Source: Bacteroidales bacterium (GTDB lineage: Bacteria; Bacteroidota; Bacteroidia; Bacteroidales; FEN-979). Taken from it: a stretch of 64,000 nt of DNA. Location: positions 33,090 to 97,089 of the forward strand of contig JALNZC010000002.1 in NCBI GenBank assembly GCA_023229525.1, written 5' to 3'. The notes below the pieces were generated by a model, which saw only the letters and a program-made list of their open reading frames with translations, made no database searches and was not told the origin of the DNA. Of the stretch, positions 8,577-64,000 are shown piece by piece. The position numbers were made by a program, and so were the translations under genes. Every line of letters begins with the position of its first letter. The stretch's first letter is position 1.

Positions 8577-8592
8577 ATTTTAAGTTGGGGTT

Positions 8593-8650: not shown

Positions 8651-8670
8651 AAATTATTTGTTACTTTATT

Positions 8671-23717: not shown

Positions 23718-23753
23718 GATTTGAAAATTTGAGGATTTGAAAATTTGAAAATG
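23718..23753. repeat. Tandem 8-nt repeat array (RATTTGAR family) between trxB and purL.
   Basis: gatttgaa aatttgag gatttgaa aatttgaa aatg. Confidence 0.8.
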
Positions 23754-39389: not shown

Positions 39390-39403
39390 ATCAAAGTTCA
39401 AAA

Positions 39404-39438
39404 CAGGATGCAGGATGCAAGATACAGGATACAGGATA
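39404..39438. repeat. Tandem heptamer array (CAGGATR family), 5 units, directly upstream of the adenosyltransferase start.
   Basis: caggatg caggatg caagata caggata caggata. Confidence 0.85.
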
Positions 39439-39512
39439 TCGATTATTGTTTATGATTTTCATTATAAATGAATGATAATGAGATTTATGTGTGAGAACAC
39501 AAAGATAAGAAT

Positions 39513-39546
39513 AAATCTAAAATCGTAAATCTAAAATCGTAAATTT
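39513..39546. repeat. Tandem 14-nt repeat (AAATCTAAAATCGT), about 2.4 copies.
   Basis: aaatctaaaatcgt aaatctaaaatcgt aaatttgt. Shares the AATCGTA core with arrays at 34364 and 37129. Confidence 0.75.
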
Positions 39547-39566: not shown

Positions 39567-40115
39567 ATGCATGCTTCTATTGATCAACCTTTTATTTTCC
39601 ACCTTCTGGGTGGAGTCGTGCGTTTCATCTTTATATTTGGTGGCGCCTTTTTTCTGCTCTGGTATTATCTTAAGTATTCAAAAAAACTGGTACAATCTGC
39701 TATCACCCCGGATGTTCAAAATATCCTACTTCCTTTGAAGTTGCAGGCATATGAAAGGTTTGTACTTTTCCTTGAGCGTATCCATCCCTCCAATCTTGTG
39801 ATGCGGCTCAACAATCCTGATCTAACATCCGGACAGTTGCAATCACTGCTGGTTCGTACCATCCGCGAAGAATTTGAATACAATCTTTCCCAGCAACTCT
39901 ATGTTTCTACTCATACATGGGAATTGATCAAAAATGCCAAAGAGGAAATGGTGGCGCTGATCAATAAAGCATTCGCCAAAACCGGAGACCAGCTTATGGC
40001 CAACGACCTGGTCAAAACTATTTTTGAGGACGTGATCGAAAAAGGTAAATTACCATCGGAACTGGCACTCGATGAAATTAAGAAAGAGGTAAAAAACCAA
40101 TTTCCACAGAGTTAA
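39567..40115 (+). CDS. Hypothetical protein with one N-terminal transmembrane segment.
   Basis: 182-aa ORF with hydrophobic segment VVRFIFIFGGAFFLLWYYL. No motif recognised. Confidence 0.45.
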   Translation: MHASIDQPFIFHLLGGVVRFIFIFGGAFFLLWYYLKYSKKLVQSAITPDVQNILLPLKLQAYERFVLFLERIHPSNLVMRLNNPDLTSGQLQSLLVRTIREEFEYNLSQQLYVSTHTWELIKNAKEEMVALINKAFAKTGDQLMANDLVKTIFEDVIEKGKLPSELALDEIKKEVKNQFPQS

Positions 40116-40181
40116 TTCAGGTATTCATGCAATTGAACGGGAGATTGTTTGGGAACCTCCGATACTATTCAACAGAGTGGT

Positions 40182-40799
40182 TTATTTTTTAAAGCGGTAA
40201 GCAATTGTAATACTGGCCACCGTATTTGTAAAACCGAAAGAAAAATTACTGGTTGTCATTTCCTGAGAATATGTATTCTGCTCATATTTTACCACACCAT
40301 AAGTGTATACTATGGAAGGATTTATTTCGGCAGAAATCACCAGGACATCATTTACAATATACCCGGCACCAATCTGCAATGAAACGAGCGGTGAAACTGA
40401 CCACATTGTAGTTTTGGAGTCATTTACGTATCCTTCTTGCTGGTTTTTCCCAAAGCTATAACTGCATCCGCCATCAAGTCCCCAAAGGAAATATAAGCTT
40501 TTTACAAGTGGAATTCTTCGTTCAAAGCCAAGGCGAATACCAACCCCGCAGTTTGTCAGTTTGTTATCCAATGAATCCTCCTTGCGACCCCAACTTTTAT
40601 TCAATCCGAGATTCAGGGATAGCAGACTCAGTCTGAACATGGTATTGGATTTGCCTGTTTTGTAGTTGATCCCGAATGAGTTTAAACCGGAAAAGTTCAA
40701 ACCGATTTCATGGTTGCGTAAGGGTTTTTCAGTTTGTCCGATGCTTAGCAATGGGAAGCAAAATACTAAAATTAAAACTGCAATAAATAGTCTTTTCAT
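40182..40799 (-). CDS. Outer-membrane beta-barrel protein.
   Basis: Signal peptide MKRLFIAVLILVFCFPLLSIGQ. Alternating hydrophobic beta-strand pattern and a C-terminal aromatic residue (..IAYRFKK). Confidence 0.55.
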   Translation of the reverse strand: MKRLFIAVLILVFCFPLLSIGQTEKPLRNHEIGLNFSGLNSFGINYKTGKSNTMFRLSLLSLNLGLNKSWGRKEDSLDNKLTNCGVGIRLGFERRIPLVKSLYFLWGLDGGCSYSFGKNQQEGYVNDSKTTMWSVSPLVSLQIGAGYIVNDVLVISAEINPSIVYTYGVVKYEQNTYSQEMTTSNFSFGFTNTVASITIAYRFKK

Positions 40800-40847
40800 G
40801 AGATTAGGTTGTTGGTTTGAATTATCGGGTTAGTTGTAATATGAAAA

Positions 40848-41684
40848 TCAATGATGTTTCAGCCTGTAATGGTACTGATATATTTCGGAAAAACCAAACT
40901 TTTTATATAATTTTATTGCGGGGATATTATCAGTGAGTACCTGCAAATATGCTATTTCTGCACCCTGATTTCTTCCCCATTGCAGAATATTTGCTACAAT
41001 CCGCATTCCCAGACCGGTATTCCGATAAGGTTGACCTACAACAATATCAAATAACCCGAGAAAATTTCTTTCCAGCACCCCCAATCCAACACCAAGCGTA
41101 TTATCTCCCTGCATTACAGAAACCAGGCATTTCGGAGTGAGTGTTTGTTCCATGATATTTATATAGGATGACTTCCGTGAAGGATCAAATCCGTTCATAC
41201 GGATAAATTCATCGAGCCAACGAACATTTATGGTTTCTTCTATTGTTACTTTAACAGTTTCCGGATGATGAACGTTTTCAGGTTGGGGCGGCTTTGAAGG
41301 ATCACAATTTTTTAACCCATCAAGCATACCGGACTCCTTCCTGTTCGCTTCATCCGTTGACACATTGTTCAGAACAGAAAATTGAAGGATTTGAAAAGAG
41401 ATATGGGAATGAATAAAGTAGCCCCGTTTTTCAAGCCGCAGATCGATATCCTGTGGATCAGCGATGGATGTTATTTTAAAACATGGTGCAATGCCCTGAT
41501 TTGTATACAGGCCTTCGCAAAAAGTGATCTTTTCATCAGGATCGATCGTAGAAGGATAGAGCATATTCACACTGTTGGAGCGTTTGGTCACACCGTTTGC
41601 AAATCGCAGAAGCCATCCGTCGTATTGCAAGGTTTGCAGGGCCGGCCAAGCGTTGTTGGAGATCTCTTCAAACCGCCGGATCAT
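40848..41684 (-). CDS. GNAT family N-acetyltransferase.
   Basis: The C-terminal VVGQPYRNTGLGMRIV...AYLQV...N..A..LYKKFGF matches the acetyl-CoA-binding motif A. Confidence 0.75.
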   Translation of the reverse strand: MIRRFEEISNNAWPALQTLQYDGWLLRFANGVTKRSNSVNMLYPSTIDPDEKITFCEGLYTNQGIAPCFKITSIADPQDIDLRLEKRGYFIHSHISFQILQFSVLNNVSTDEANRKESGMLDGLKNCDPSKPPQPENVHHPETVKVTIEETINVRWLDEFIRMNGFDPSRKSSYINIMEQTLTPKCLVSVMQGDNTLGVGLGVLERNFLGLFDIVVGQPYRNTGLGMRIVANILQWGRNQGAEIAYLQVLTDNIPAIKLYKKFGFSEIYQYHYRLKHH

Positions 41685-41687
41685 AAT

Positions 41688-41778
41688 GAAAACTTAAAAC
41701 TTAAAGTGTAAAGCTCAAAACTTTATTTCAAAAGTCAAAACAATTGATTTATCCTTAAATCCTCAAATCTTCAAATTT
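41688..41778. repeat. Degenerate 7-nt (AAAACTT/AAAGTCA) and 8-nt (ATCYTYAA) tandem repeats between the GNAT and alkylation-repair genes.
   Basis: gaaaact taaaact taaagtg taaagct caaaact ... atccttaa atcctcaa atcttcaa. Confidence 0.6.
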
Positions 41779-42487
41779 TCCCCCGTTTGAATCGCTGTTT
41801 CCCTTCTGGGGTCATCTTTTCACATGCATACTGAAAAATAAGCCTCGGTGAAGTATCTTTGTATTTCAATAAAAAAAATTCGGCAGGTTCTGGCTGTTTT
41901 TTCCAGGCTTCGCGCAGGAACCAGCCAAGTCCCTGATGTACTTCACGTTCGGGATCTTGCATCAGGGGTGCAATGAACTGGAACCAGGGTTGAAAATCAC
42001 TGGAAAGTTTCATTGGTTTGATCAGGCTGACGGCAGCCGCTCTTCGCTGGAATTTATTCTTAGCCGAACGCCAACCGGCAATACTATCCAAGGTTATGAA
42101 CTCTTTTTTAAAAAAGAGCGCCATGATTTCTCCACAGATATAATCGGTATGTGCCCAGTTTGTAATGCCTATCGAAAACCAGCTTTCCACATCTTTAAAG
42201 GTATCGGGGGTCCACTGTTTGTGTAATTTCAGTGTCATCAGAATGGCCATGCTCACCTCTTCATATTTGGGAGACTTCACAAGGATCTCCGCCATAGATA
42301 AAACAGAAGGAAGATCCATTCCGGGCAATGCAAGGATTTCAGCCACTTTGGCCTCGAACATTCCGGAAGGTAACCCCCAGCCATTGTACCCCTCTTTAAA
42401 ATAACGGGAATATTTCTGAACAATGGCAGGATCGGAATGCTCCATGCAAAATTCACGGAAGTTGTGGATGATTTCGTTAGTGTTCAT
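41771..42487 (-). CDS. DNA alkylation repair protein (AlkD-like HEAT-repeat family).
   Basis: MNTNEIIHNFREFCMEHSDPAIVQKYSRYFKEGY... resembles the family N-terminus. The ORF-track start at 42610 reads through a heptamer array, so I prefer the ATG at 42487. Confidence 0.65.
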   Translation of the reverse strand: MNTNEIIHNFREFCMEHSDPAIVQKYSRYFKEGYNGWGLPSGMFEAKVAEILALPGMDLPSVLSMAEILVKSPKYEEVSMAILMTLKLHKQWTPDTFKDVESWFSIGITNWAHTDYICGEIMALFFKKEFITLDSIAGWRSAKNKFQRRAAAVSLIKPMKLSSDFQPWFQFIAPLMQDPEREVHQGLGWFLREAWKKQPEPAEFFLLKYKDTSPRLIFQYACEKMTPEGKQRFKRGKI

Positions 42488-42499
42488 AGGCTGGGTGTT

Positions 42500-42576
42500 G
42501 GATGCAGGATGCAGGATGCAGGATACAGGATACAGGATACAGGATACAGGATACAGGATACAGGATGCAGGATGCT
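42500..42576. repeat. Tandem heptamer array, 11 units (GGATGCA x3, GGATACA x6, GGATGCA, GGATGCT), between alaS and the alkylation-repair gene.
   Basis: Counted directly: 77 nt of uninterrupted 7-nt periodicity. Confidence 0.95.
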
Positions 42577-42655
42577 GGGGACAAGATGTAAAATAATTAA
42601 GAGCTATCAAATTTAGTAAATCTAAAACAAACAGATATAGTATACAACACGATTG

Positions 42656-45357
42656 TTATTCCGCAAGGTACTCCCGTGCTTTTTCCAATGCCTTAGGTAT
42701 TCCTGCCGGATTTTTTCCACCGGCCGTGGCAATGTGGGGTTGTCCGCCGCCACCGCCCTGGATCTCTTTAGCCAATTCCCGGATGATTTTCCCGGCATGC
42801 AGATCATGTTCCTTTACTAAATTATCAGCAAGCATAACGGTAAGCGAAGCTTTGCCTCCGTTTTCGGAAGCAAACACAAGAAATAAATTGGGGATTGCGC
42901 GATTCAGCTCATGGGCCAGGTTCTTAACAGTTTCGGCATCAAGATCAACAAGGACAGCAAGGAAGTTGATTCCATTAATGGATTGCACCTGTGTTATATA
43001 CTCTTCTTTGAGTTGGTGCAGCTTTAATTTCCCCAATTCAGCCACCTGGCGTCTCAACTCCTGGTTTTCTTCCTGTAGATTCTTAACGCCTTTTATAAGG
43101 TCTTTCGGATTTTTCAGCAGTTCGCCCACTTCGTCCAGAAGTGTTTCTTTCGCATTCCAGTATTTTTCTGCTTTTTCGGCAGTGATTGCTTCAATCCTTC
43201 GGATTCCAGCAGCGATGGCGCCTTCGGATATGATTTTAAACATTCCGATTTGCCCGGTCGCTGCAACGTGGGTTCCTCCGCAAAGTTCAACGGAGTAATC
43301 AGGATCAAAAACGATAACGCGAACAAGGTCACCGTATTTCTCACCAAACAGTGCCATGGCTCCCATTTCACGCGCTTTCTCAATGGGAATTGCCCGTTCT
43401 TCCTTCAGGATGATATTCTCACGGATTTTGGCATTCACCAGCGTTTCCACTTTCGTGATTTCTTCCTTTGTCATCCTGGCGAAATGAGTGAAATCGAACC
43501 GGAGATGCTGATCATCGACAAGCGATCCTTTTTGTTCGACATGGGTACCCAGAATATTTCTCAGAGCAGCATGTAACAAGTGGGTCGCCGAATGGTTGTT
43601 GGCTGTATTTGTACGTTTTACAGTATCAACCCTGGCATCAACCGGCAAATTCGGATTGCTGAAAATGGAGGGTGTAATATGTATGAAAAGTTCATTTTCT
43701 TTGAGGGTATCCAATACTTCGAGTTTTTCTTCCCCCGATACCAGCCAACCCTTGTCGCCTACCTGACCACCGATTCCGCATAAAAAGGGGTTTTATCCAA
43801 AACGATGTGATAATGCTCCCGGCCTTTGGTTGTAACCATGCGGAATTTGGTGATTCTGGAGTTAGTTTCCAACATATCGTATCCTTTAAATTCTGACATT
43901 CCGGCATCGCTTACTAAAACAGTCCAATCGGATGCATCCAATGTAGCATCCTGCCGCGAACGGGCTTTTTGTTCCTCCAATCCTTTTTTAAACCCTTCCA
44001 TATCGACCGTCCACCCGAATTCCCGGGCCATGAGTTGCGTTAGATCGATGGGAAACCCGAACGTATCATAAAGTTCAAAGGCAAAAGCACCCGAAATAGC
44101 TGGTGAGCTGGTGAACTGGTGAGTTGGTGAGCCAATGAGTTGTTCAGTTTTGAAATTTGAATCGAGGTTTTGAATTTTGAGTTTTGAGTTTTGAACTGAC
44201 TCAACATAATTATTAAACCGTTGAATCCCTGCGGAAAGTGTTCTCATGAAAGCGGCTTCTTCTTCACGGACCACATTGTTTATCAACTTTTGTTGTGCAA
44301 TAAGTTCGGGAAAAAACGGACCCATTTGGGCGACCAGAACGGGAAGCAACCTGTAAAGGAATGGTTCTTTGATCCCGAGAAACGTATATCCATAGCGAAC
44401 TGCCCGCCGGAGGATGCGACGGATCACATAACCTGCTTTCACGTTCGATGGCAATTGTCCGTCGGCAATTGCAAAAGCTACGGCACGCAAGTGATCGGCT
44501 ATGACCCGCATAGCGATATCGGCTTTGGGATCTTTGCTGTATTCTATCCCCGCCTTCAACGCAATAGCTTGTATAATGGGTTGGAATACATCGGTATCGT
44601 AATTTGACTTTTTACCCTGCAACACCATACACAGGCGTTCGAATCCCATACCGGTATCAACATGTTTGTCCGGCAGTGGAACTAATTTTCCGTCCGACTG
44701 ACGGTTAAATTCGATGAATACAAGGTTCCATATTTCGATAACAAACGGGTTCCCGGTATTGACAAGTGAGGCGCCCGGGATTTTATTACGGTCAGCATCT
44801 TCGCGGATATCAGCATGAATTTCCGAACAAGGGCCGCAGGGACCCGTATCACCCATCTCCCAGAAATTATCTTTTTTTGATCCGAACAGGATTTGTTCCT
44901 CTGGAATCATGGCTTTCCAGTACCCAAAGGCATCATCATCCCGTGACAATCCTTCGGTTTCATCCCCTTTAAAAACAGTAACATACAATCGTGTTTTATC
45001 AATTTTCAGGACTTCTGTCAGCAGTTCCCATCCCCAGGAAATGGCTTCTTTTTTAAAATAATCTCCAAATGACCAATTACCAAGCATCTCGAACATGGTA
45101 TGGTGATAAGTGTCATGGCCTACTTCCTCCAGATCGTTGTGTTTTCCCGACACCCGAAGACATTTCTGAGTATCGGCAATCCGCTTGAATTTAGCTTCCC
45201 GGTTACCAAGGAAAATATCCTTGAATTGGTTCATGCCGGCATTGGTGAACATCAAAGTAGGATCGTTTTTTATCACCATGGGGGCCGAGGCGACAATTTC
45301 ATGTTGCTTCGACCTGAAAAATTCGAGAAAGGTCTGTCGGATACTTGTAGAATCCAT
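42656..45357 (-). CDS. alaS: Alanine--tRNA ligase, split into two ORFs (43759-45357 and 42656-43714) by an apparent 1-nt deletion near 43770.
   Basis: N-terminal part: FF..K.H....S..V...[15 protein letters not shown]. The upstream ORF ends ...[10 protein letters not shown]. Shifting one base restores the canonical [13 protein letters not shown] and runs into the downstream ORF, which has [12 protein letters not shown] and a C-terminal DHHA1-like GGGG region. Confidence 0.9.
44099..44196. repeat. In-frame 8-nt (GYTGGTGA) and 7/8-nt (TTTTGAR) tandem repeat arrays inside alaS.
   Basis: gctggtga gctggtga actggtga gttggtga gccaatga ... ttttgaattttgagttttgagttttgaac. Sense translation is [33 protein letters not shown]. 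Confidence 0.85.
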
Positions 45358-45438
45358 CTAATTATAAGATTAACAATTCGTTAACAATCTTTAACATTTT
45401 TTAAAAACCCCAAACGGCTGCAAAGTTAATTATTTACT

Positions 45439-45446
45439 TAATTTTG
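45439..45446 (+). promoter_or_regulatory. Bacteroidota -7 box (TAnnTTTG).
   Basis: TAATTTTG lies 47 nt upstream of the ATG at 45493. Confidence 0.35.
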
Positions 45447-45492
45447 TAGACGTTAGCTTGCCTGTTTTGATTAATTCTTTATTTAGCTATTG

Positions 45493-46467
45493 ATGAGCAA
45501 AGTAAAGTACAAATTCAATAAAAAATTATTAACTTTCGACCGGGTGCATACAACATTCCGGAAGAGGTTGTTGTATTTTTTCTCGCATTTATCAACAGGT
45601 GTTGTGTTTGCCGCAGCTGTGCTTATCCTGGCCTATAATTTTCTGGATTCTCCAAAGGAAAAGGCACAGAAACGGGAAATTGATGAATTAAAACTCCAAT
45701 ACCAGATTCTGAATGATCAGCTTGACAGGGCAACAAAGATAATGGCCGATTTGCAGGACCGGGATGATAATATTTACCGGGTGATTTTCGAAGCAGAGCC
45801 GATCCCGAATTCCATCCGGGAAGCGGGTATCGGTGGAATTGACCGATATGAGCCTCTGAAAGGCTATTCCAATTCTGATGTCGTAATCGAAACAGCAAAG
45901 AAAATGGACAGGATACTGGGAAAGCTTTATGTTCAGTCAAAATCTTTTGATGAAGTTTTTGGCCTTGCTAAAAATAAGGAAAAGATGCTGGCATGTATCC
46001 CGGCCATTCAGCCAGTGAACAATAAAGATTTGAGAAGGATCGGCTCTTATTTTGGCACCCGGATGGATCCTTTTTATAAAGTCAGGAAATTTCATGAAGG
46101 GATGGATTTTTCGGCATCGGTTGGTACCGAGATTTATGCAACCGGAAATGGTATCATTGTTGATGCCGGCCGGGATACCCAGGGAGGATATGGTAATGAA
46201 ATAATCATTGATCATGGTTATAATTATAAAACAGTGTATGCCCATCTTTCAAGGATTTTTGTTAAATCAGGTCAAAAAATATTGCGTGGACAAATCATTG
46301 GATATGTCGGCAACACTGGAAAATCAACATCCCCGCATCTCCATTATGAGGTACGGAGAAACGGCGTACCATTAAATCCTATTTATTTCTTTTTCAATGA
46401 TTTAACATCAGAGCAATTTCAGATGATGTTGGACCTTTCTTCCCGGCCTTCTCAAACCATGGACTAA
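45493..46467 (+). CDS. M23 family metallopeptidase (peptidoglycan endopeptidase) with an N-terminal membrane anchor and coiled coil.
   Basis: HEGMDFSA (HxxxD) and GNTGKSTSPHLHYEV (HxH) zinc-ligand motifs. ATG at 45493, one codon after the track's TTG. Confidence 0.9.
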   Translation: MSKVKYKFNKKLLTFDRVHTTFRKRLLYFFSHLSTGVVFAAAVLILAYNFLDSPKEKAQKREIDELKLQYQILNDQLDRATKIMADLQDRDDNIYRVIFEAEPIPNSIREAGIGGIDRYEPLKGYSNSDVVIETAKKMDRILGKLYVQSKSFDEVFGLAKNKEKMLACIPAIQPVNNKDLRRIGSYFGTRMDPFYKVRKFHEGMDFSASVGTEIYATGNGIIVDAGRDTQGGYGNEIIIDHGYNYKTVYAHLSRIFVKSGQKILRGQIIGYVGNTGKSTSPHLHYEVRRNGVPLNPIYFFFNDLTSEQFQMMLDLSSRPSQTMD

Positions 46468-46481
46468 CGGAACTTCGGTTG

Positions 46482-46817
46482 ATGCTAAAAACAAACAAGA
46501 AAATAGAAAAAATCTACTATTCCATTGGGGAAGTGGCTGAATTATTTGAGGTAAACACGTCGCTCATCCGATTTTGGGAGAAAGAATTTGATATTTTACA
46601 GCCACAAAAAAACAAAAAGGGAAACCGGTTATTTACCCGGCAGGATTTAAATAACCTTCGTATCATTTATCATCTGGTGAAGGAGAGGGGGTATACGTTG
46701 CAGGGAGCAAAAGAAAAGCTTCGACAGAATAAAGAGGATGTTGGGAAACAGGTGGAGATCATCGATTCTCTTAATCAGATCAAGGGCTTCCTGCTTGATT
46801 TGAAAGAACAGATGTAA
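46482..46817 (+). CDS. MerR family transcriptional regulator.
   Basis: YSIGEVAELFEVNTSLIRFWEKEF is a MerR-type helix-turn-helix. Length is about 111 aa. Confidence 0.8.
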   Translation: MLKTNKKIEKIYYSIGEVAELFEVNTSLIRFWEKEFDILQPQKNKKGNRLFTRQDLNNLRIIYHLVKERGYTLQGAKEKLRQNKEDVGKQVEIIDSLNQIKGFLLDLKEQM

Positions 46818-47170
46818 TGCGGGAAACATCGATGCCGGGTTCAGCTTCATTTTTTGAAAATGTTTATGATGTCGTTCGTCAAATCCCGGCCGGCCGGGTC
46901 ACATCGTATGGAGCAATTGCAGAATATCTGGGGTTGCGGGGGTCAGCCAGGATGGTTGGCTGGGCGATGAATGCAGCCCAGACACCGGACAACGATGTTC
47001 CTGCACACCGGGTAGTGAACCGAAACGGGATGCTTACCGGAAAACATCATTTCGGTGGTCCGTTGATAATGCAGCAACTTCTTGAGAGTGAGAATATAGA
47101 GATCATTGATGACCAGGTGGTACGGTTCGGTGAATTGTTTTGGGATCCGGCTAAGGAGTTGACAAGTTAA
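46817..47170 (+). CDS. MGMT-family DNA-binding protein lacking the acceptor cysteine (alkyltransferase-like, ATL).
   Basis: IPAGRVTSYGAIA and VPAHRVVNRNG, where PAHR replaces the catalytic PCHR. The start ATG overlaps the MerR stop (TAATG). Confidence 0.75.
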   Translation: MRETSMPGSASFFENVYDVVRQIPAGRVTSYGAIAEYLGLRGSARMVGWAMNAAQTPDNDVPAHRVVNRNGMLTGKHHFGGPLIMQQLLESENIEIIDDQVVRFGELFWDPAKELTS

Positions 47171-47209
47171 AAGTGAAAAGTGATAATGGATTTATTAAGT
47201 GAATTGCAC

Positions 47210-47265
47210 AACATCCTATATCCTGTATCGTGTATCCTGTATCCCGTATCCTGTATCCAGCGTCC
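47210..47265. repeat. Tandem heptamer array (NGTATCC family), 8 units, between the ATL gene and mrp.
   Basis: aacatcc tatatcc tgtatcg tgtatcc tgtatcc cgtatcc tgtatcc agcgtcc. Confidence 0.9.
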
Positions 47266-47271
47266 TTTTTT

Positions 47272-47279
47272 TAATTTTG
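47272..47279 (+). promoter_or_regulatory. Bacteroidota -7 box (TAnnTTTG).
   Basis: TAATTTTG lies 14 nt upstream of the ATG at 47293, immediately after the heptamer array. Confidence 0.4.
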
Positions 47280-47292
47280 TAGATGACATAAT

Positions 47293-48384
47293 ATGAATAT
47301 AGAAATAAATATCTCCCAAATAACTGAAGCGTTACGACATGTTGATGATCCCGATCTCCATCAAGACCTGGTAACGCTCAAAATGATCGAAAATATTCAG
47401 ATCGAGAGTCCGGTCGTCCGTTTTGATGTTGTACTCACAACACCGGCTTGCCCGCTGAAAAACCAGATCCGACAAACCTGTATCGATGCTATCCATCAAT
47501 ATGTACATCCTGAGGTGGAAGTAGTTATAAACATGACTTCCCGGGTCACTTCAAGACGAAAAGAGACTGATTTGATGCTGAAAGATGTAAAGAATATTAT
47601 CGCCGTTGGATCCGGCAAAGGGGGTGTCGGAAAATCGACTGTGGCTGTAAATCTCGCAGTTGCCCTGTCTCAAACGGGTGCCCGCGTAGGCCTCATAGAT
47701 GCTGATATTTACGGACCTTCTGTCCCGATGATGTTCGGGATGGTCAATGAGCGCCCAAAGGGTTTCGATAAGGATGGAAAAACATTTGTCTATCCGTTTG
47801 AAAGGTTCGGAATTAAAATATTATCCATAGGATTTTTTGTCGATCAATCGAAAGCCCTGATATGGCGAGGTCCGATGGCTTCGATGGCTCTGCGTCAGCT
47901 TTTTACGGATGCAGAATGGGGTACACTCGATTACATGATCGTTGACCTTCCACCCGGAACCGGCGATATTCCACTGACCCTGGTCCAGGATTTCCCACTC
48001 ACAGGCGCGATCATTGTGAGTACTCCGCAAGAAGTCGCTATTGCTGACGTGCGAAAAGCGGCCGATATGTTCCGTAATGATAAAATCCACATCCCGGTGC
48101 TCGGATTGGTCGAAAATATGTCATACTTTTCGCCACCTGATCAACCTGAGAAAAAGTATTATATCTTTGGTATGGGAGGATGCCGTAAATTTGCTGCAGA
48201 ATTGAATATTCCTTTGCTGGGGCAAATACCGATCGTTGCTGCCATTGCCGAATCAGGTGATGCCGGAAATCCGGTTGCGACCGATCCGGAATCCCCGATA
48301 ACCGCTACTTTTAATGAGTTGGCCGAAAAAGTAGCACAACAGATAGCGATAAGCAATACAATAAGGGAATCATTTGAAAATTGA
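47293..48384 (+). CDS. apbC: Mrp/NBP35-family iron-sulfur cluster carrier ATPase.
   Basis: N-terminal DUF59-like V.DP.L..DLV.L. The deviant Walker A is GSGKGGVGKST. Length is 363 aa. Confidence 0.9.
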   Translation: MNIEINISQITEALRHVDDPDLHQDLVTLKMIENIQIESPVVRFDVVLTTPACPLKNQIRQTCIDAIHQYVHPEVEVVINMTSRVTSRRKETDLMLKDVKNIIAVGSGKGGVGKSTVAVNLAVALSQTGARVGLIDADIYGPSVPMMFGMVNERPKGFDKDGKTFVYPFERFGIKILSIGFFVDQSKALIWRGPMASMALRQLFTDAEWGTLDYMIVDLPPGTGDIPLTLVQDFPLTGAIIVSTPQEVAIADVRKAADMFRNDKIHIPVLGLVENMSYFSPPDQPEKKYYIFGMGGCRKFAAELNIPLLGQIPIVAAIAESGDAGNPVATDPESPITATFNELAEKVAQQIAISNTIRESFEN

Positions 48385-48681: not shown

Positions 48682-50370
48682 TCACGAAAGATACCTGGCT
48701 ACAATAGGCATGCGACGCCCCATACCGAATGCTTTAGGAGAAACCCTGAGGATGGGAGGTGTCTGATAACGTTTGTATTCGGAAGTGTTGACCAGTTTCA
48801 GAACCTTTCTTACTGTTGATGCATCAAATCCCTCCCGGATCAGTTCTTCAGGTCCAGTGCGTTGTTCTATGTATTTAAAAAGAATCTGATCAAGGATATC
48901 ATAACCAGGTAAAGAATCAGAATCTTTCTGGCCAGGCCGCAATTCTGCCGAAGGAGGCTTAAGGATAGAATTTTCCGGGATGACCAACTGGTTTGAATTG
49001 ATGAGCCTTGCCAGTTCGTAAACCTGGGTTTTGTATACATCACCAAGTACCGACAACCCGCCGCTCATATCCCCATACAATGTCCCGTACCCCACCGCAG
49101 CTTCACTTTTATTGGAAGTATTAAGCAGGATGTACCCGAATTTATTTGATAATGCCATCAGGATAACAGCCCGGAGACGAGCTTGAATATTTTCTTCTGT
49201 CAGGTTAAATGGCAGATTGCCGAATTGTGGTTCCAGGGTGTGCTTCAGCGCTTTAAAGCCTTCCTCAATGGGGATAATTTCGTATGGAACACCCAGATTT
49301 TCGGCTAAAGTGCGTGCATCTGTAATGCTGTGATCCGAAGAAAATTGCGAAGGAAGGAGAATCGCCCTGACATTTTCGGGACCAAGTGCTTCCGCTGCAA
49401 GGACAAGTGTTACTGCTGAATCGATTCCTCCCGAAAGACCAATTATCGCTTGAGCAAATCCCATCTTATTGAAATAATCACGAATACCAAGGACCAGGGC
49501 AGAATGGATCATCTGTATACTGGATGCTGGATACTGGATTTTTCTCTCTTCCAGAGGTGAAAAATCTGGGAATGATCTTGATGTATGATGCAGGATGCAG
49601 GATTGATTTTCTGGATTAAAATCGATGATCTGAAGATCTTCTTCAAAGCGTTTGAGCCCGGCAATTACGTCTCCGTTCGGAGCGATAACCATGGAATCGC
49701 CGTCGAAAATGAGCTCAGTCTGGCCACCAACCTGGTTAACATATATCACAGGAAGATGGTAGGTAATGGCATTTCTGGAAAGTACTTCACGACGGATAGC
49801 CGGTTGATCGTAATTAAAGGGTGAAGCTGAAATATTGATGACCAGATCGGGATTCAAGGAGATCAGCTCATCCATGGGATTGCGTACGTATAGTGGGTCA
49901 TCGGCTACATTCCAAAGATCTTCACAGATAGTTACTGCAAACCGGCAGCCGAGGTGTTCTATCAGAGAGTAGGGGAGCCGGTTTGGCTCAAAATAACGAT
50001 ATTCGTCAAAAACATCGTAATTGGGCAAAAGGGTCTTATTTGTCATTGCCTTTATGGCGCCGTCGGCAAGGAAATAAGCGGTATTATAGAGCGGTTTACC
50101 ACGCGGAGCAGGATTAATCGAAGGAGCGCCGACTACGGCAGCAATTCCCTGACACGCCAATGCAATGGTTTCAACTGCCTGCCTGCACTGACGGATAAAA
50201 TCATCAAATTCAAGAAAATCGCGAGGCGGATAACCGCAAACTGAAAGTTCAGCAAACACAACGACATCGGCTTGCAGAATTTTGGCTTGGTTAATTGCCG
50301 AGATGATCCGGGCTGTATTACTCGCGAAATCACCTACATGATAATTCAGTTGTGCCAGTGCAATTTTCAT
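48682..50370 (-). CDS. nadE: Glutamine-dependent NAD+ synthase.
   Basis: N-terminal CN-hydrolase (MKIALAQLN...VVFAELSVCGYP...ICEDLW) and C-terminal NAD synthetase with GLSGGIDSAV (SGGxDS PP-loop). Heptamer insertions lie in the interdomain linker. Confidence 0.95.
   Translation of the reverse strand: MKIALAQLNYHVGDFASNTARIISAINQAKILQADVVVFAELSVCGYPPRDFLEFDDFIRQCRQAVETIALACQGIAAVVGAPSINPAPRGKPLYNTAYFLADGAIKAMTNKTLLPNYDVFDEYRYFEPNRLPYSLIEHLGCRFAVTICEDLWNVADDPLYVRNPMDELISLNPDLVINISASPFNYDQPAIRREVLSRNAITYHLPVIYVNQVGGQTELIFDGDSMVIAPNGDVIAGLKRFEEDLQIIDFNPENQSCILHHTSRSFPDFSPLEERKIQYPASSIQMIHSALVLGIRDYFNKMGFAQAIIGLSGGIDSAVTLVLAAEALGPENVRAILLPSQFSSDHSITDARTLAENLGVPYEIIPIEEGFKALKHTLEPQFGNLPFNLTEENIQARLRAVILMALSNKFGYILLNTSNKSEAAVGYGTLYGDMSGGLSVLGDVYKTQVYELARLINSNQLVIPENSILKPPSAELRPGQKDSDSLPGYDILDQILFKYIEQRTGPEELIREGFDASTVRKVLKLVNTSEYKRYQTPPILRVSPKAFGMGRRMPIVARYLS
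49513..49607. repeat. Two in-frame heptamer arrays (CTGGATR x4 and GATGCAG x4) inside the nadE linker.
   Basis: ctgtata ctggatg ctggata ctggatt (49513-49540) and gatgtat gatgcag gatgcag gattgat (49580-49607). Sense translation is ...CILHHTS...QYPASSIQ... Confidence 0.8.
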
Positions 50371-51221: not shown

Positions 51222-51306
51222 GGAATGGGAGGAAGGAATGAAGGAATGAAGGAATGAAGAATTGAGTGATTGAGTGATTGAGTGATTGTGTGATTGTGTG
51301 ATTGAA
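51222..51306. repeat. Two abutting tandem 8-nt arrays (GGAATGAA x3, then TGATTGAG/TGATTGTG x6).
   Basis: ggaatgaa ggaatgaa ggaatgaa gaattgag tgattgag tgattgag tgattgtg tgattgtg tgattgaa. Confidence 0.9.
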
Positions 51307-52425: not shown

Positions 52426-52545
52426 CCACCTGCCCACTTGTCCACCTGCCCACTTGTCCACCTGCCCACTTGTCCACCTGCCCACTTGTCCACCTGCCCA
52501 CTTGTCCACCTGCCCACTTGTCCACCTGCCCACTTGTCCACTTGT
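52426..52545. repeat. Perfect tandem 16-nt repeat (CCACCTGCCCACTTGT), 7 full copies plus a half copy.
   Basis: Counted directly from 52426. Lies between the gldB-like stop (52388) and the comM start (52614). Confidence 0.95.
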
Positions 52546-52613: not shown

Positions 52614-53669
52614 ATGCTGGTAAAAACATATGGCAGTGCCGTATTTGGAATCACAGCTATGACCGTAACTGTGGAGGTTCATATGGATCAGGGTATCCAG
52701 TTTTTTATGGTGGGATTGCCCGACAATGCCGTCAGGGAAAGTCATCAGCGCATTGAATCAGCCTTACGGACAAACGGGTATCGGATTCCCGGGAAAAAGA
52801 TCACTATAAATATGGCGCCGGCTGACATCCGAAAAGAGGGGTCATCATATGATCTTACCATTGCTATGGGAATACTGGCCGCGAATGAAGTAATAAAACC
52901 GGATAAACTTGAACATTACATGATCATGGGGGAGCTTTCGCTTGACGGAAGCCTGCTGCCGATCAAAGGAGCCATATCCATTGCCCTTGAAGCCCAGCAA
53001 AAGGGATTCAAGGGGATTTTACTTCCTGTTCAAAATGCGAGGGAGGCAGCCATTGTACGTGAACTTGAAGTTTATGGGGTTCAGACAATCCGGGAAGTTA
53101 TTGATTTTTTTAATGACGCCTGCATTTTATCGCGTCAATTTCCTGAAGTAACAAACGAAACCGATCAAGCCTTTTCTGAACATGAATATGATTTTGCGGA
53201 TGTCAGGGGTCAGGAGAACATAAAACGTGCAATAGAAATAGCCGCTGCTGGTGGCCACAATGTCATTCTGATCGGACCTCCCGGAGCTGGAAAAACAATG
53301 CTGGCAAAACGGCTTCCATCCATTCTGCCCCCATTGAATTTCAGGGAAGCCATTGAAACAACCAAAATACATTCCATTGCAGGGAAACTTGGAGTAAACC
53401 GGTCACTGGTATCGATGCGACCTTTCAGGGCGCCTCACCATACAGTTTCGAACACGGCTCTTGTCGGTGGTGGTAGTATTCCGCAACCGGGAGAGATCTC
53501 TCTTGCTCACAATGGTGTTTTATTCCTCGATGAACTGCCGGAATTCAAAAGATCGGTTCTGGAAGTCTTGCGTCAGCCAATGGAAGATCGTGTCGTGACA
53601 ATCTCCCGCGCCAAGGTAGCCATTGAGTATCCATCCAGCTTTATGCTTGTGGCAGCAATGAACCCTTGA
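52614..53669 (+). pseudogene. comM: comM/yifB (Mg-chelatase-like AAA+ ATPase), truncated after about 351 codons by island insertion.
   Basis: N-terminal Lon-protease-like domain; Walker [10 protein letters not shown]; Walker [10 protein letters not shown]. The ORF ends ...FMLVAAMNP*, where family members continue with a Cys-rich CPCG zinc motif and about 150 more residues. Confidence 0.85.
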
Positions 53670-55140
53670 AGTTGCATTGCTTATTTCCCAGCTTTCCTAA
53701 ATTGGATGGAATATACGCAAGCTTGATTGCAATGTCTTCACGTCCAACGGTTATTTTCTCGGTAATGACTTCAATGATTGTCCGTTTTTCTTCAAAGGGC
53801 ATTTGGGGCCAGCGGTCATAGAGGTCTTTGGCGTCTCGTAATATGGTGTCTGATGATAGGGTTTGAATTTTAAGGAAATCGACTTCGGCCATGAGTTCAG
53901 GGAGCTGATTTTCGATTTGAGCTAATTGTTCTTCAATGGGTTTGTAGTGACGGGGGAAGCTGTCCTTGGAGATTTCGCCGGACAGTCTCATGGCCACTAG
54001 TTCATTCATTTCTTTGCGGATTCTGTCAGCTTCGCTAGTTTGCCGGGACAGCATGGTTTCCTTTTCTTGAATAATTGAATCTGTTTGGGAAAGATAGGTT
54101 TTGATGTCCTGATCAGTGAGTAAAAAGGCTTTAAGTTGTTCATGATAGATTTCATCAATGTCTGCGGCCAGAATTCTGTTTTTGCAGGCTTTACAAGTAA
54201 ATACGTTGGAAGGATGGAAAACATACATCTTTTTACCGCAAGAGCAGGACAATAGACCGGAAAGAAGGTGGGCTGGTTTAGGTCCCGGTTTCCGGCGTTT
54301 GATTTCCTGTTCTTCTAAAATTCGATTACATTCATTCCAAAGCTTATCAGAAACTACAGCCGGACAAGCGGTAACAATCCATTCACTTTCCGGTTTAAGA
54401 GTCCAATGTTTACCCTCCCCTAAGCTTTTTGTGTAGTTGGCCCGGCGTTCACCTTTGGCCGTTGGGTCTTTAATCAATCGATCAACAGTTGTGTCAGAAA
54501 ATTTTGAGCCGTTCCGGGTCCGGTATCCGAGGTCGTTTAACTCTTTGGCCGTAGTTTTTTTTCGTTTATGCTTTAAAAATATCTCGTAAAGGAGTTTCCG
54601 GATTGGGGCTTCTTTTTCATCAACCACCAGCTCCTTTCCGTCCCAACGATAGCCAAACGAGCCGGCCCCACCCAGTGGCTTGCCTAATTTAGCGCGGACG
54701 GGAACTGAAGCGGCTACCCGGCTGGAAATTTCTTCCCGTTCCCATTGAGCCATAGCCGCTATCATGGTGTAAAAGAGTCGTCCAGCCGGGGTGCTCGTGT
54801 CTATGGCTTCCTGAAGCGATATTAGGTCAGCATTGCTTTCCCGAAAGAGGTCAGCAAAGTCGAGCAGTTCTCTGGTATTTCGGGCTAATCGGGCCAGCTT
54901 GGAAAAGATAAGTCCGGTAATGTTACCATGTTTAATATCTCTTAACATCCTCTTGGTTTCCGGGTGATCCATCACGGATTTGCCGGAAACTGCTTCTAAA
55001 TGATAGACCTCAACAACATTCCATTCTTTGGCTTCAGCATATAATCGAGCCCGTTTTTCGTGATGTTCAGGCGATTCTCCTTTTGCCTGATCTTCGGTAC
55101 TGACACGAATCCAGATACCGACTTCTTTCTTGGTTTCCAT
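53641..55140 (-). CDS. Large serine recombinase (integrase).
   Basis: Resolvase-type catalytic region [12 protein letters not shown], a recombinase domain, the zinc-ribbon [25 protein letters not shown], and a C-terminal coiled coil. I prefer the ATG at 55140 (METKK) over the TTG at 55173. The last 9 or so codons read into comM antisense sequence. Confidence 0.9.
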
Positions 55141-55302
55141 TCTATTGTGTTGCCGTGAGCCAAAATTACTCAATTGTTATGATCGTGAAGCAGCTAAAGG
55201 GGCGAATTTTTATATATTTGCCGGGTTATTATCGTTCCTAATCCAAATAATTGCTGAAGTTACCCCCATCATTGGAAAGCAAACCAAATCTACTCATTAA
55301 CC

Positions 55303-57813
55303 ATGACAGAAGAAATAAAAGAAGGCTATATACACGATTATGTTTCTGGTGTTGAAATAAAAGCCACACCTGAAGAAATTGAAGCCGTCCAAGTTTATTC
55401 AAAAATTCTTGTCGAGGACTATGAGTACCCAAAAAACCACCTTCAAACTCGACCTCAATGGAGGGTAAAAGTAAGACCTTCTGATAACAAAAAAGAGTAT
55501 CCTGTTGATATCGTTATTTTTGAGAATAACAAAAAGGAAGATGGAGCGGAGATCATTATCGTTGAATGTAAAAAAAGGAACCGTAAAGACGGTAGAACAC
55601 AGCTAGAAGATTACTTAAGATTTTCTAGAGCCAGTATTGGTGTGTGGTTCAATGGTGATGAAAAATTATTTCTTAAGAAATCTGAAAAAAAAGGAAAGGT
55701 TCTGTTTGAAGAAATACCAAATATTCCAAAGTATGGTGAGAAGCTTGAAGATATTGGACTGTACAAAAGGAAGGATTTAAAAATAGCCCATAACCTTAAA
55801 AGTGTTTTTAAAACGATAAGAAACTACCTGGCCGCCAACGCAGTTGGAATTACGCGAGACGAAGTATTCGCTCAACAAATTATCAATGTGATCTTCTGCA
55901 AGATTTACGATGAGCGCTTTACTAAACCGGAGGAAACAGTTAATTTTCGTGCGGGGATTGAGGAAGACTCAAATATTATAGCTAACCGAATAAAGGATAT
56001 TTTCGAAAAGGTTAAAACACAATACGGTGATGTTATTGAGAAAAATGACAGAATATTATTAGATGATTCCTCATTAACATATGTTGTAGGTGAGCTGCAA
56101 ATATATTCAATCACTCAAAGTGAGAGGGATGCAATAGCGGATGCCTTTGAAACATTTATTGGCCCCTCTTTAAAGGGTGGCCAAGGTCAGTTTTTTACTC
56201 CACGCAATATTGTCAGGCTAATAATTGAGATCGTCAATCCGTCTGAGACCGACAAAGTAATTGATCCGGCCTGTGGTAGTGGCGGATTTCTCGTTGAAGG
56301 GTTACGACATGTTTGGCGGAAGATTGACCAAAATGGTAAAAAATTCAACTGGCCTGATCCTGAGATTTATGCTGAGAAACAGAAGGCCGCCATTCAGAAT
56401 TTTAGGGGAATCGATAAGGATAATTTTCTTAGCAAGGTTGCTAAGGCTTACATGGCGATAATCGGTGACGGTCGCGGGGGCGTGTTTTGCGAAAACTCTC
56501 TTGAGAATTTTAAAAACTGGAAGGTCTCAACCAGAAATGGAATTAGTATTGGCGAATATGATGTGGTTGTTACTAATCCACCGTTTGGAAAAAAACTTAA
56601 GATTGATGACATCGGAATTCTAACTTCTTTTAATCTTGGCCATAAATGGAAAAATGACAAGAAAATAAAAACTTTCGAATTGACCAATATCCTTCAAGAT
56701 GCCCAGGCTCCTCAAATTCTTTTTGTTGAGAGATGCTTAGAGTTATTGAAGGATGGAGCTAAAATGGGATTTATTGCCCCGGAAAGTATGTTTTGTAACC
56801 CAAGTCATAGATACATCGTTCAGTATATTAAGTCTATAGCCAAAATAAAGGTAATAATTTCGTTGCCTGAGGAGTTGTTTCAACCATATACCCATGCTAA
56901 AACTTGCCTGGTTGTTCTTGAAAAGGACCTAAAAAAGGCGAAAGCTGATCACGAGATATTTATGGCTGTTGCTAAGTGGTGCGGTCATGATTCAAGGGGC
57001 CTTGAAATCCCCTTTGATGATATCCCCAAGATTCAGAATAGATATAATCAATATGTGACAGATGGGAAGATTGAATATGATCATTTAGGATTTACAATTT
57101 TAGAATCTCACATTAAAAGTAATGTTTATTTACCTAAATATTACAATCCGGAAATGCAGGATAAATTGAAAATTCTATCAGAAACTCACGACTTGGTCGA
57201 ATTTAAGGACTTAGTTAAAGCAAAGATTATTAGAGTATCAACTGGTGATGAAGTTGGCAAATTGAGTTATGGAACTGGTAATATCCCTTTTATTCGGACG
57301 TCTGATATCGCAAACTGGGAAATTAAAAGTGACCCAAAACAGGGTCTGAGCAATGAAATCTATGAGTCATTAAGGGAGAAGCAAGATGTTTGTGAAAATG
57401 ATGTCTTAATGGTTAGAGATGGAACATATTTAGTTGGCACCTGTGCTATTGTCACCAAACTCGAAACAAAGATTCTTTATCAGAGCCATTTGTACAAAAT
57501 CCGGTCACTTGACCCTGAGAAATTGCATCCATATTTGTTATTGGCGTTACTTTCCGCACCAATCGTTAAAGAACAAATAGCCGCTAAGCGTTTTACTCAG
57601 GATATTATTGACACGCTTGGGGAACGATTATATGAGCTCGTTTTACCTATACCGAAGAATGCCAAGGATAAGGAGAAAATTATAAAAAACATTGAAGATG
57701 TAATTTCTTATAGGATAAAAGCGAAGGAGATTGCTCGAACCACTATCTTAGAGTTAGCTCCTGATGGCACTGATTTTACAGATGAATATGATTTCTTGAC
57801 TATGAGCAAGTAA
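55303..57813 (+). CDS. Single-chain Type IIG-like restriction-modification enzyme: HsdR-N-like PD-(D/E)xK nuclease, N6-adenine methyltransferase and an HsdS-like target-recognition domain.
   Basis: Nuclease YPVDIVIF...IIIVECKK. Methylase FFTPRNIVRLI, VIDPACGSGGFLVE (motif I) and VVVTNPPFGKK (motif IV NPPF). The C-terminal single TRD has GNIPFIRTSDI. Confidence 0.8.
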   Translation: MTEEIKEGYIHDYVSGVEIKATPEEIEAVQVYSKILVEDYEYPKNHLQTRPQWRVKVRPSDNKKEYPVDIVIFENNKKEDGAEIIIVECKKRNRKDGRTQLEDYLRFSRASIGVWFNGDEKLFLKKSEKKGKVLFEEIPNIPKYGEKLEDIGLYKRKDLKIAHNLKSVFKTIRNYLAANAVGITRDEVFAQQIINVIFCKIYDERFTKPEETVNFRAGIEEDSNIIANRIKDIFEKVKTQYGDVIEKNDRILLDDSSLTYVVGELQIYSITQSERDAIADAFETFIGPSLKGGQGQFFTPRNIVRLIIEIVNPSETDKVIDPACGSGGFLVEGLRHVWRKIDQNGKKFNWPDPEIYAEKQKAAIQNFRGIDKDNFLSKVAKAYMAIIGDGRGGVFCENSLENFKNWKVSTRNGISIGEYDVVVTNPPFGKKLKIDDIGILTSFNLGHKWKNDKKIKTFELTNILQDAQAPQILFVERCLELLKDGAKMGFIAPESMFCNPSHRYIVQYIKSIAKIKVIISLPEELFQPYTHAKTCLVVLEKDLKKAKADHEIFMAVAKWCGHDSRGLEIPFDDIPKIQNRYNQYVTDGKIEYDHLGFTILESHIKSNVYLPKYYNPEMQDKLKILSETHDLVEFKDLVKAKIIRVSTGDEVGKLSYGTGNIPFIRTSDIANWEIKSDPKQGLSNEIYESLREKQDVCENDVLMVRDGTYLVGTCAIVTKLETKILYQSHLYKIRSLDPEKLHPYLLLALLSAPIVKEQIAAKRFTQDIIDTLGERLYELVLPIPKNAKDKEKIIKNIEDVISYRIKAKEIARTTILELAPDGTDFTDEYDFLTMSK

Positions 57814-57827
57814 AACGATAATGTAGT

Positions 57828-63574: not shown

Positions 63575-63599
63575 GATAGTACATAATTAGCCTTGAGTA

Positions 63600-63607
63600 C
63601 AAAAATA
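63600..63607 (-). promoter_or_regulatory. Candidate Bacteroidota -7 box (TATTTTTG on the minus strand) for the three-gene operon.
   Basis: Plus-strand caaaaata is the reverse complement of TATTTTTG, 26 nt upstream of the GTG at 63574. Confidence 0.35.
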
Positions 63608-64000
63608 GTCTATTGGTACGATAGATCCTTAACCCAGGATGATTTTTTTTAACATTCTGCTGTTTGCTTCTAGCTTCGAGTTAGGAGAATGTGTGGTTAT
63701 GCCCGTTAAGAAAAGACCCCGACCAGGTAAAACGGTGTTCACTCCAGCCCTATCAACAAAAAATCCGCCAAGCCATCGCCCTGCGGGTTCGTACCTCAGC
63801 TTGTCATATTTTTTGCCTTTTATAGGGCATCCATTCACTACAGCCTGCTTTGTCTTGTAGCTATCTCTTTCTTTCCGCTTCGCTCCAGTCAATCAATAGC
63901 TACAATCCACCGGCTGATAATGTTTTGCTCGCCTGCGAGCTCATTCGGCTTCGGAATTATATTTCATTTTCCTAACTCACAAGCTTTTATATAAAATGGA

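Follow-up and report, generated by a model that had tools for sequence, protein, structure and literature searches.

In a 64-kb window of genome from a Bacteroidales bacterium (64,000 nucleotides), the gene for alanyl-tRNA synthetase (alaS, protein AlaRS) contains a tandem-repeat stretch of exactly 99 nt at window positions 44098–44196. We consider it probable that these 99 nt are two adjacent simple-sequence arrays that were born by slippage and are tolerated in a disordered linker of the enzyme, so that the segment would be a passenger made at the DNA level. An earlier note on this DNA had described about 100 nt of 8-nt and 7-nt tandem repeats in frame in alaS, and both Tandem Repeats Finder (TRF) and direct reading bear this out. 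The stretch is in frame in the minus-strand open reading frame (ORF) 43759–45357, where it encodes ∼33 residues, and the translation is the same as the one given in the earlier note.

On the coding strand a 7-nt array with the consensus YTCAAAA / CAAAACT (16 residues encoded) is followed by an 8-nt array of the CTCACCAG type (17 residues encoded; Table 1). Read on the plus strand from 44098, the stretch runs AGCTGGTG AGCTGGTG AACTGGTG AGTTGGTG AGCCAATG AGTTGTTC, which gives six 8-mers, four of them clean and two degenerate (44098–44145), and then AGTTTTG AAATTTG AATCGAG GTTTTGA ATTTTGA GTTTTGA GTTTTGA, seven 7-mers of which one has diverged (44146–44194), plus AC. The units are cleanest at the outer ends of the insert and degenerate toward the junction of the two arrays. 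TRF reports a period of 8 with 4.4 copies at 44098–44132 (85% matches, score 56) and a period of 7 with 4.0 copies at 44168–44195 (90% matches, score 42).

The identity of the host gene is supported by a match of ORF 43759–45357 to the catalytic fragment of Aquifex aeolicus AlaRS (1riq; E = 6e-130), and by homologues that have the AlaRS domain architecture (PF01411, PF07973, PF02272). HMMER left residues 387–419 of the protein unaligned; their counterpart in Aquifex 1riq is only 8 residues long (370–377), and they have no counterpart in solved AlaRS fragments. A conserved 17-residue segment lies directly C-terminal of the insert. We built an AlphaFold2 model from 83 sequences (mean predicted local distance difference test, pLDDT, 80.5), which in Foldseek comparison with solved AlaRS fragments gave template modeling (TM) scores of 0.78–0.88, normalized to the target. 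In this model a long helix (356–399) extends into the first array with a pLDDT of ∼72–89, and residues 400–419 form coil with a pLDDT below 60, falling below 50 in the part encoded by the second array (406–415). The insert is thereby predicted to sit in the linker joining the helical part to the following alpha/beta part of the tRNA-recognition region, which looks like a structurally permissive surface linker, and its second half is a predicted disordered loop.

In the window's assembly a single nucleotide is missing from a G run at ∼43769 (43765–43775, minus strand), which splits alaS at a point ∼330 nt downstream from the arrays. At the break the coding strand reads GAATCGGTGGTCAGGTAG, and the site reads GAATCGGTGG in the window versus GAATCGGGTGG in the intact P0124/L168; a 14-residue family consensus also requires GAATCGGGTGG. 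The split gene is found in public Joint Genome Institute (JGI) gene calls as well (P0001, P0123). Locus L168 (8098 nt), which comes from a different JGI sample and is 99.975% identical to window positions 39931–48027, contains the additional G and codes for an unbroken AlaRS of 900 aa. The frameshift is thus confined to the window's assembly or strain. The earlier note had allowed that the repeats might be an artefact of assembly or sequencing, and the indel in the same contig could be taken to point that way. This is next to impossible, since the same 99 nt stand unchanged in the intact alaS of L168 and dozens of independent assemblies have expansions at the same AlaRS site. The insert is genuine.

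We defined the linker as the segment between R-T-L-x-x-G-I-x-x-F and G-x-FAFEL, which could be parsed in 130 Bacteroidota alaS loci and is bordered by conserved DNA flanks (ATTGAATC and GTCATTGAC). It measures 13–16 aa in 96 of these loci (e.g., ENYVEQNKGAKLID), and a short linker of this kind appears to be the ancestral state. It had been considered earlier that distant AlaRS orthologues might share the insert as a non-repetitive sequence; what distant Bacteroidota orthologues have is a short, non-repetitive linker of 9–16 aa. Among the 120 closest AlaRS homologues (68–100% identity, mostly uncultured Bacteroidales), the linker has between 14 and 69 aa (median 29), and only 11 have 16 aa or less. 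Many of the extra peptides resemble 7-nt units read in three frames (SSIQHPAS, ASCILHPVS, SRVTRHAS, NRQSSIVNR, EYRISNI). A metagenome scan gave few close relatives among the matches listed.

In eight of the ten expanded relatives for which DNA was read, the extra linker DNA is a 7/8-nt array of a different unit family (Table 1). No periodicity was detectable in the 38-aa insert of L084, the closest relative with DNA (79%). All 11 expanded alleles verified in DNA are in frame and free of stops, as they must be by construction, since only open-frame alleles were read. An intein, intron or other excised element was set aside because every allele read keeps the segment in frame and without stops. 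The protein with an empty linker encoded by L166 (P0013) groups with the window in the tree described below. These comparisons suggest that in sister lineages the same AlaRS loop has many times grown, been exchanged for other sequence or stayed empty. A PPQPLP-type peptide, as encoded by the in-frame inverted repeat of L002, occurs in ∼10 of the 120 homologues, and hairpin-type small elements therefore appear to use the AlaRS site too.

The same two arrays, in the same order, are found in L081 (P0047) and L082 (P0081), where they take up 69 nt. The window exceeds them by exactly two 7-mers and two 8-mers (14 + 16 nt), and because the difference totals 30 nt the reading frame is kept. As the pair is common to AlaRS genes that are only 72% identical in protein, it does not appear to be recent. 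At codon positions 1/2/3 the window and L082 are 80/89/41% identical over residues 1–380 and 91/74/87% identical over the 23 codons of the insert. Third positions in the insert are thus identical in 20 of 23 cases (binomial P ∼8e-5 against a background of 0.47). Since third-position identity matches that of the first and second positions, with no relaxation of silent sites, the insert is not conserved in the way of a protein segment.

This pattern bears on whether the insert could be a lineage-specific functional peptide module of AlaRS, for instance one that provides an extra contact to tRNA or to a partner, with protein selection acting on it and the repeats being incidental. The pattern S-K-x-K-x-Q-N … S-P-x-H-Q-F-T is common to six AlaRS sequences from two branches, the first half of the insert is predicted to extend a helix (pLDDT ∼72–89), and the position falls within the tRNA-recognition region. 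The helical and alpha/beta parts of that region, Mid1 and Mid2, hold the acceptor stem in the AlaRS complex of A. fulgidus (PMC9908026). Against these points stand the equal conservation of all three codon positions, sister lineages in which the site is empty or filled with unrelated sequences or other repeats, the predicted disorder of the second half, and the occurrence of the same units in non-coding DNA. We regard a functional module as improbable, and a protein-level insertion domain of AlaRS was rejected on the unrelaxed third positions, the absence or replacement in sister lineages and the low pLDDT of the second half.

Both unit families of alaS exist as ordinary non-coding arrays. The earlier note had placed the second family it named, the 7-mer, also at 8593 and 23718. 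The first of these sites stands: the family is present intergenically at 8594–8644, with an exact 20-mer (CAAAACTCAAAACTCAAAAC) at 8614–8633 on the plus strand. The second does not, as the repeat there has a period of 8/16 and only a related A/T-rich unit. The 8-mer family has no other occurrence in the 64-kb window. In L082, a (GTTCACCA)x3.4 array of the TTCACCAR type lies in the spacer downstream of alaS, with a (GGTGAACA)x10.8 array nearby, and L165 has a 34-copy non-coding array of the same type (TTCACCAA; 1553–1824) between unrelated genes. The translation of the latter has been called as a 187-aa "protein" in a public metagenome (P0122; SPIHQFTN x13) and is a spurious ORF. An exhaustive HMMER search with the 41-aa linker against 1.84 billion representatives returned only P0122 and an unrelated repetitive protein (P0121), so that at this sensitivity the composite was not found in other protein families; a word-indexed protein search with the same linker gave no candidates.

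Arrays of this kind are frequent throughout the window. TRF located 7/8-nt arrays at 16 sites in the 64 kb, where about none would be expected. At a score of at least 40 there were 12 rows of period 7 and 5 of period 8, versus 0 and 0.05 per window in 20 Markov-1 simulations, and the shuffle expectations in the window searches for the 8-mer and 7-mer families were 0.23 and 0.00. Most of the arrays fill intergenic spacers. In-frame arrays occur in 5 of the ∼44 window genes, namely alaS, a sulfotransferase-family gene, an SDR gene, purL and nadE (Table 1). The relatives' loci are likewise rich in 7/8-nt arrays. The argument made earlier, that repeats shared by coding and intergenic DNA point to a common origin at the DNA level, is strengthened by the four further genes with in-frame arrays and by related orthologues that hold other 7-nt arrays at exactly the same AlaRS site. 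It is also strengthened by the non-coding 8-mer arrays in L165 and beside alaS in L082, and by an insert whose identity to L081/L082 is as high at third codon positions as at the others, in a gene that is otherwise saturated at third positions.

The arrays in genes are short and imperfect, with at most 5.7 copies and with 80–90% matches for those of at least 3.9 copies. Among the intergenic arrays, the best have 10.6 copies with 97% matches and 7.2 copies with 100%. Such a difference would result if tracts prone to slippage were selected against in genes. The gene nadE (glutamine-dependent NAD synthetase) has arrays of different units in two relatives, CATCATC x7 in L082 (603–651) and ATCCCGC x5.6 in L084 (5989–6027), the latter in the same interdomain linker as in the window. 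By this comparison the nadE linker appears to be a second hot spot for arrays.

Table 1. Positions and composition of the alaS gene, its arrays, the other 7/8-nt arrays of the window and the alaS linkers of relatives (window coordinates unless a locus is named).
Feature	Position	Strand	Description
alaS (alanyl-tRNA synthetase)	42656–45357	−	split in this assembly into ORFs 43759–45357 (532 aa) and 42656–43714 (352 aa)
alaS, first array (coding strand)	44146–44196	−	seven 7-nt units GTTCAAA ACTCAAA ACTCAAA ATTCAAA ACCTCGA TTCAAAT TTCAAAA
alaS, second array (coding strand)	44098–44145	−	six 8-nt units CTGAACAA CTCATTGG CTCACCAA CTCACCAG TTCACCAG CTCACCAG, then CT
Intergenic composite	8591–8760	+	(CAAAACT)n, the 7-mer family of alaS, then (ATCCAGC/ATCTTGY)n
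In sulfotransferase-family gene (17374–18690)	17866–17905	+	in-frame (AATCCAG)x5.7, peptide ESSIQNPTSSILYP
In SDR gene (18671–19774)	19162–19293	+	in-frame (GAACAAAA)x2.8 + (ATCCTGY)x5.3; adh_short Pfam match ends just before
Intergenic	23719–23752		period 8/16, ATTTGAAA
In purL (23815–27555), N-terminal domain	24064–24102	+	in-frame (CCCTCGT)x5.6, peptide PSSLVPPPSSFVP
Intergenic	39403–39543	+	(ACAGGAT)x5.1 + (AAATCTA/AAATCGT)x4.3
Intergenic	41689–41776	+	(AAAACTT)x5 + (ATCCTCAA)x3.2
Intergenic, just downstream of alaS	42500–42573	+	(GGATACA/GGATGCA)x10.6, 97% matches
Intergenic	47160–47266	+	(TGAAAAG)x3.4 + (ATCCTGT)x6.6; same spacer has other arrays in L082 and none in L084
In nadE (48682–50370), interdomain linker	49513–49603	−	two in-frame 7-nt arrays (sense ATCCAGY, CTGCATC) around a 47-nt spacer
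Intergenic, 8-nt arrays	51232–51305	+	(GAAGGAAT)x3.5 + (ATTGAGTG)x5.6
Intergenic, between gldB and comM	52426–52541	+	perfect 16-nt unit CCACCTGCCCACTTGT (CCACCTGC+CCACTTGT) x7.2
L001 alaS linker			GAATATC and CGTCATT arrays either side of a non-repetitive middle
L002 alaS linker	7144–7209		in-frame perfect 20-bp-stem inverted repeat CCCCACCCCAACCCCTCCCC / GGGGAGAGGGGTTGGGGTGGGG, peptide PPQPLPLGRGVGVGV
L003 alaS linker			CGTCACG array
L004 alaS linker			CCCGTCA array
L086 alaS linker			ATCCCGN x7
L087 alaS linker			GAATAATC array
L088 alaS linker			ATCCAGC array
L167 alaS linker			AAATTCA array
L166 and L085 alaS linker			"empty" short linker NAYIGLQKPNGEPVID, 16 aa

Arrays that recur in coding and non-coding DNA might also act as a nucleic-acid signal, such as an element that makes translation pause or an array of sites bound by a protein that recognizes DNA or RNA, which would have the same role in the coding region as between genes and be kept for it. 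All codon positions are equally conserved, the intergenic arrays often abut start codons (8591–8656 before the gene starting at 8576; 41689–41723 before 41684), and a translational role has been proposed for TAACTGA arrays (PMC4679880). Yet the units differ widely between sites and genomes, their orientation relative to genes is inconsistent, most alaS orthologues are without this sequence, and the alaS insert has no match in Rfam. We think it very unlikely that the insert is a signal of this type.

Arrays of this kind are scattered through this Bacteroidales lineage, and under the slippage interpretation they would gain and lose units by slippage during replication or by unequal exchange. To survive within a gene an array would have to satisfy four conditions: a length that is a multiple of three, no sense-strand stop in any frame, a harmless peptide and a permissive position. 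The AlaRS linker, which follows the long helix of the tRNA-recognition region and precedes a conserved 13-residue segment, offers such a position. The first array would prolong the helix and the rest would form a disordered loop, making the insert a passenger "expansion segment" and not a selected protein module. What looks "inserted" may then be an expansion in place rather than the arrival of a foreign piece. Several relatives have a first unit that starts in phase on the flanking GAAT conserved in Ile-Glu-Ser, or that is similar to the CCTGTCATT found at the 3′ edge, and for these lineages growth in place is suggested. The CGTCATT and CCCGTCA units lie at a distance of 1 from CCTGTCATT at the correct edge (background 0.22–0.28), which is only suggestive.

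Several observations weigh against this interpretation. In a neighbor-joining distance tree calculated with the linker excluded, and in sliding identities, the window goes with P0002, P0013 and P0046 and not with the P0047 group. The ordered array pair is thus present in the AlaRS of a different branch (the P0047/P0081 group, 72% protein identity) and absent from the nearest relatives (P0002, 79%; P0013, empty). Simple vertical descent plus neutral decay fails to account for the ∼84% DNA identity in the insert. A recombination patch was rejected as the cause: sliding protein identity and flank DNA identity put the flanks closest to P0002/L084 and not to the L081/L082 group, with no P0047-like patch. 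The empty linker of L166 gave no sign of having locally seeded the two units of the window, the minimum Hamming distance being no better than for other stretches of the gene (fractions 0.91 and 1.00). The window and L168, the two available assemblies, are identical across all arrays with no copy-number difference in any, which gives no sign of ongoing slippage; neutrality of the insert peptide is presumed.

Three readings of the shared pair remain: it is ancestral with a persisting consensus, it was transferred as a very short tract, or it arose twice. We favor persistence, on the known behavior of microsatellites. If only runs of perfect units keep expanding, an array would regenerate its majority unit while mutated units would accumulate at the edges, and this fits the decay toward the junction seen in the window.

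A rival explanation is a small mobile or copied composite cassette, a polar pair with an A-rich array before a C-rich one, that an active sequence-specific process would have spread into alaS and independently into the alaS of the P0047 group. Such a process could be an insertion resembling transposition, the templated addition of repeats at breaks, or gene conversion out of long "master" arrays. Across the window and ten relatives' loci, 19 of the 52 array clusters have at least two different arrays within 80 nt of each other, and five composites in the window read A-rich and then ATCC/C-rich on one strand (8594, 19162, 41689, 47160 and, in sense, alaS). Long non-coding arrays of the same 8-mer exist, and the ordered pair occurs in two separate AlaRS branches with a third-position identity of 78–87% and without similarity of the flanks. 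However, no terminal inverted repeats or target duplication surround the insert, the polarity is not universal (39403–39543 is arranged otherwise), several relatives' arrays start in phase on the flank GAAT or resemble CCTGTCATT as in growth in place, and no candidate enzyme was identified. The unit families also mostly differ between genomes. Exact sharing with the window (2 observed versus 0.57 expected, P ∼0.1) was not significant, and we accordingly claim no unit families that are universal across genomes. We hold a cassette of this kind to be rather unlikely.

The arrays would in that case be the footprint of an active, sequence-aware process that writes ordered 7/8-nt pairs into intergenic DNA and permissive protein loops, to which we give the same small chance. 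If true, it would explain why one third of the array sites are composites and why two separated alaS branches have the same ordered pair with near-identical silent positions. A small mobile element of the miniature inverted-repeat transposable element (MITE) or repetitive extragenic palindromic (REP) type was rejected: there is no flanking inverted repeat, the window has no second copy of the 8-mer array, and the composite in full was found only in AlaRS. Slippage in place remains the explanation that we prefer.

The window arrays fit the description of long simple sequence repeats (LSSR), a class with units of 5–11 nt, of which heptamers are the commonest and which have been proposed to originate by polymerase slippage (Mrazek, Guo and Shah, 2007, as summarized in PMC4679880). 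As in LSSR so described, the units of 7–8 nt lie head to tail, far above chance, and are dispersed and mostly intergenic; the alaS arrays themselves are near-uninterrupted head-to-tail copies of a short unit within the LSSR size range. Slippage would change the copy number by whole units; the window and L081/L082 differ by exactly 2 × 7 + 2 × 8 nt, and the two near-identical assemblies do not differ in copy number in any array. Unlike in that work, which according to the summary stressed avoidance of non-triplet units in genes, the arrays here enter genes that include essential housekeeping enzymes, and the same loop of one protein has been hit repeatedly within a clade.

Heptameric repeats are also known from cyanobacteria and xanthomonads (short tandemly repeated repetitive sequences, STRR, and GGGNATC repeats), where they are dispersed, lie mostly between genes (32% intragenic in Nostoc) and vary in copy number (PMC4692102). 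The window arrays are similar in being dispersed 7-nt tandem arrays with a minority inside genes. They differ in phylum and in units, the alaS units having neither a G-tract nor quadruplex potential, and in the number of unrelated unit families found side by side here, with pairs of arrays often lying back to back. With CAAAACT, CTCACCAG, ATCCWGY and others as units and an uncultured Bacteroidales as host, membership in these groups was rejected. TAACTGA direct repeats occur in Beggiatoaceae, Cyanobacteria and a few Bacteroidetes near start codons, with occasional copies inside ORFs in the stop-free orientation, and "larger assemblages of heptamer repeats" have been noted in Bacteroidetes intergenic regions (PMC4679880). 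Their copies in ORFs are mostly at protein termini or in hypothetical proteins and not, as here, in the middle of conserved enzymes (PMC4679880). The 64-kb window has no match to TAACTGA arrays even with one mismatch allowed.

Phase-variable contingency loci, such as the simple sequence repeats of Haemophilus influenzae, likewise have non-triplet units in frame, and gain or loss of a unit shifts the frame (PMC2651432). The alaS units share with them a length that is not a multiple of three and a place inside a reading frame. Contingency loci have long perfect tracts, typically in surface, lipopolysaccharide or restriction-modification genes where switching is useful; the alaS arrays are short, imperfect and in the middle of an essential enzyme, where switching would be lethal. 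A contingency locus was rejected on these grounds and because the two assemblies are identical; the frameshift at 43769 lies well away from the arrays. In Plasmodium falciparum, housekeeping proteins including aminoacyl-tRNA synthetases tolerate slippage-born, compositionally biased and disordered inserts in surface loops. Those inserts are mostly trinucleotide or homopolymer-codon expansions in a eukaryote, and the case described here concerns 7–8-nt units read in three frames in a bacterium.

What is unusual here is the frequency of in-frame non-triplet arrays in conserved housekeeping enzymes and the recurrent use of one loop across a clade. Non-triplet simple-sequence arrays can thus create new protein sequence in an essential, conserved enzyme: within one clade a 14-aa linker becomes one of 14 to 69 aa, with each 7-nt unit being read in all three frames. 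The empty, filled and replaced alleles of one site form a natural series for the birth, growth, decay and loss of microsatellites under frame constraint. They also inform on where proteins tolerate disordered inserts, for which nadE offers a second site. Practical effects include spurious ORFs such as P0122, low-complexity "motifs" that look odd in annotations, and gaps in alignments that can mislead phylogenies based on marker genes such as alaS.

Some further features of the window arrays and of the alaS surroundings were observed. When the array just downstream of alaS is read through it gives ASCILYPVSCILHP, a type of peptide that is also found inside relatives' AlaRS. A mechanically called ORF (41771–42610) crosses this array (site 42482–42610), giving ASCILYPVSCILYPVSCILHPAS. 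Because the DNA_alkylation domain starts after a Met at ∼42481, the (GGATACA)x10.6 array is most likely 5′ untranslated or intergenic. The half-unit CCACTTGT of the array between gldB and comM equals, after rotation, the 8-mer TGTCCACT repeated 12.6 times in L004 (2757–2857).

The region 5′ of alaS (45358–45489) is strongly conserved in L001, L002, L004, L084–L087 and L166 despite saturated silent sites. It contains …ACAAAATTAAGTAAATAATTAACTTTGCAG… and then three TGTTAA motifs ∼10 nt apart (ATGTTAAAGATTGTTAACnnATTGTTAATC) right before the start codon, and may be a promoter plus operator or a leader; it has no match in Rfam. The sole Rfam family match in the window is one tRNA gene (22517–22590; RF00005, 55 bits).

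At the right end of the window, a block of low GC content (32–40%) has none of the 7/8-nt arrays. In this part of the window (52614–64000) a comM/yifB-like Mg-chelatase gene ends at Pfam profile position 158 of 207, and is followed by a large serine recombinase (53641–55173, minus strand). The genes of the block encode a type IIG-like N6-methylase/HSDR_N protein, a 615-aa protein without assigned function, an HATPase_c_3 protein and an N6/N4 methylase. The region 52614–64000 looks like a defence island integrated into comM.

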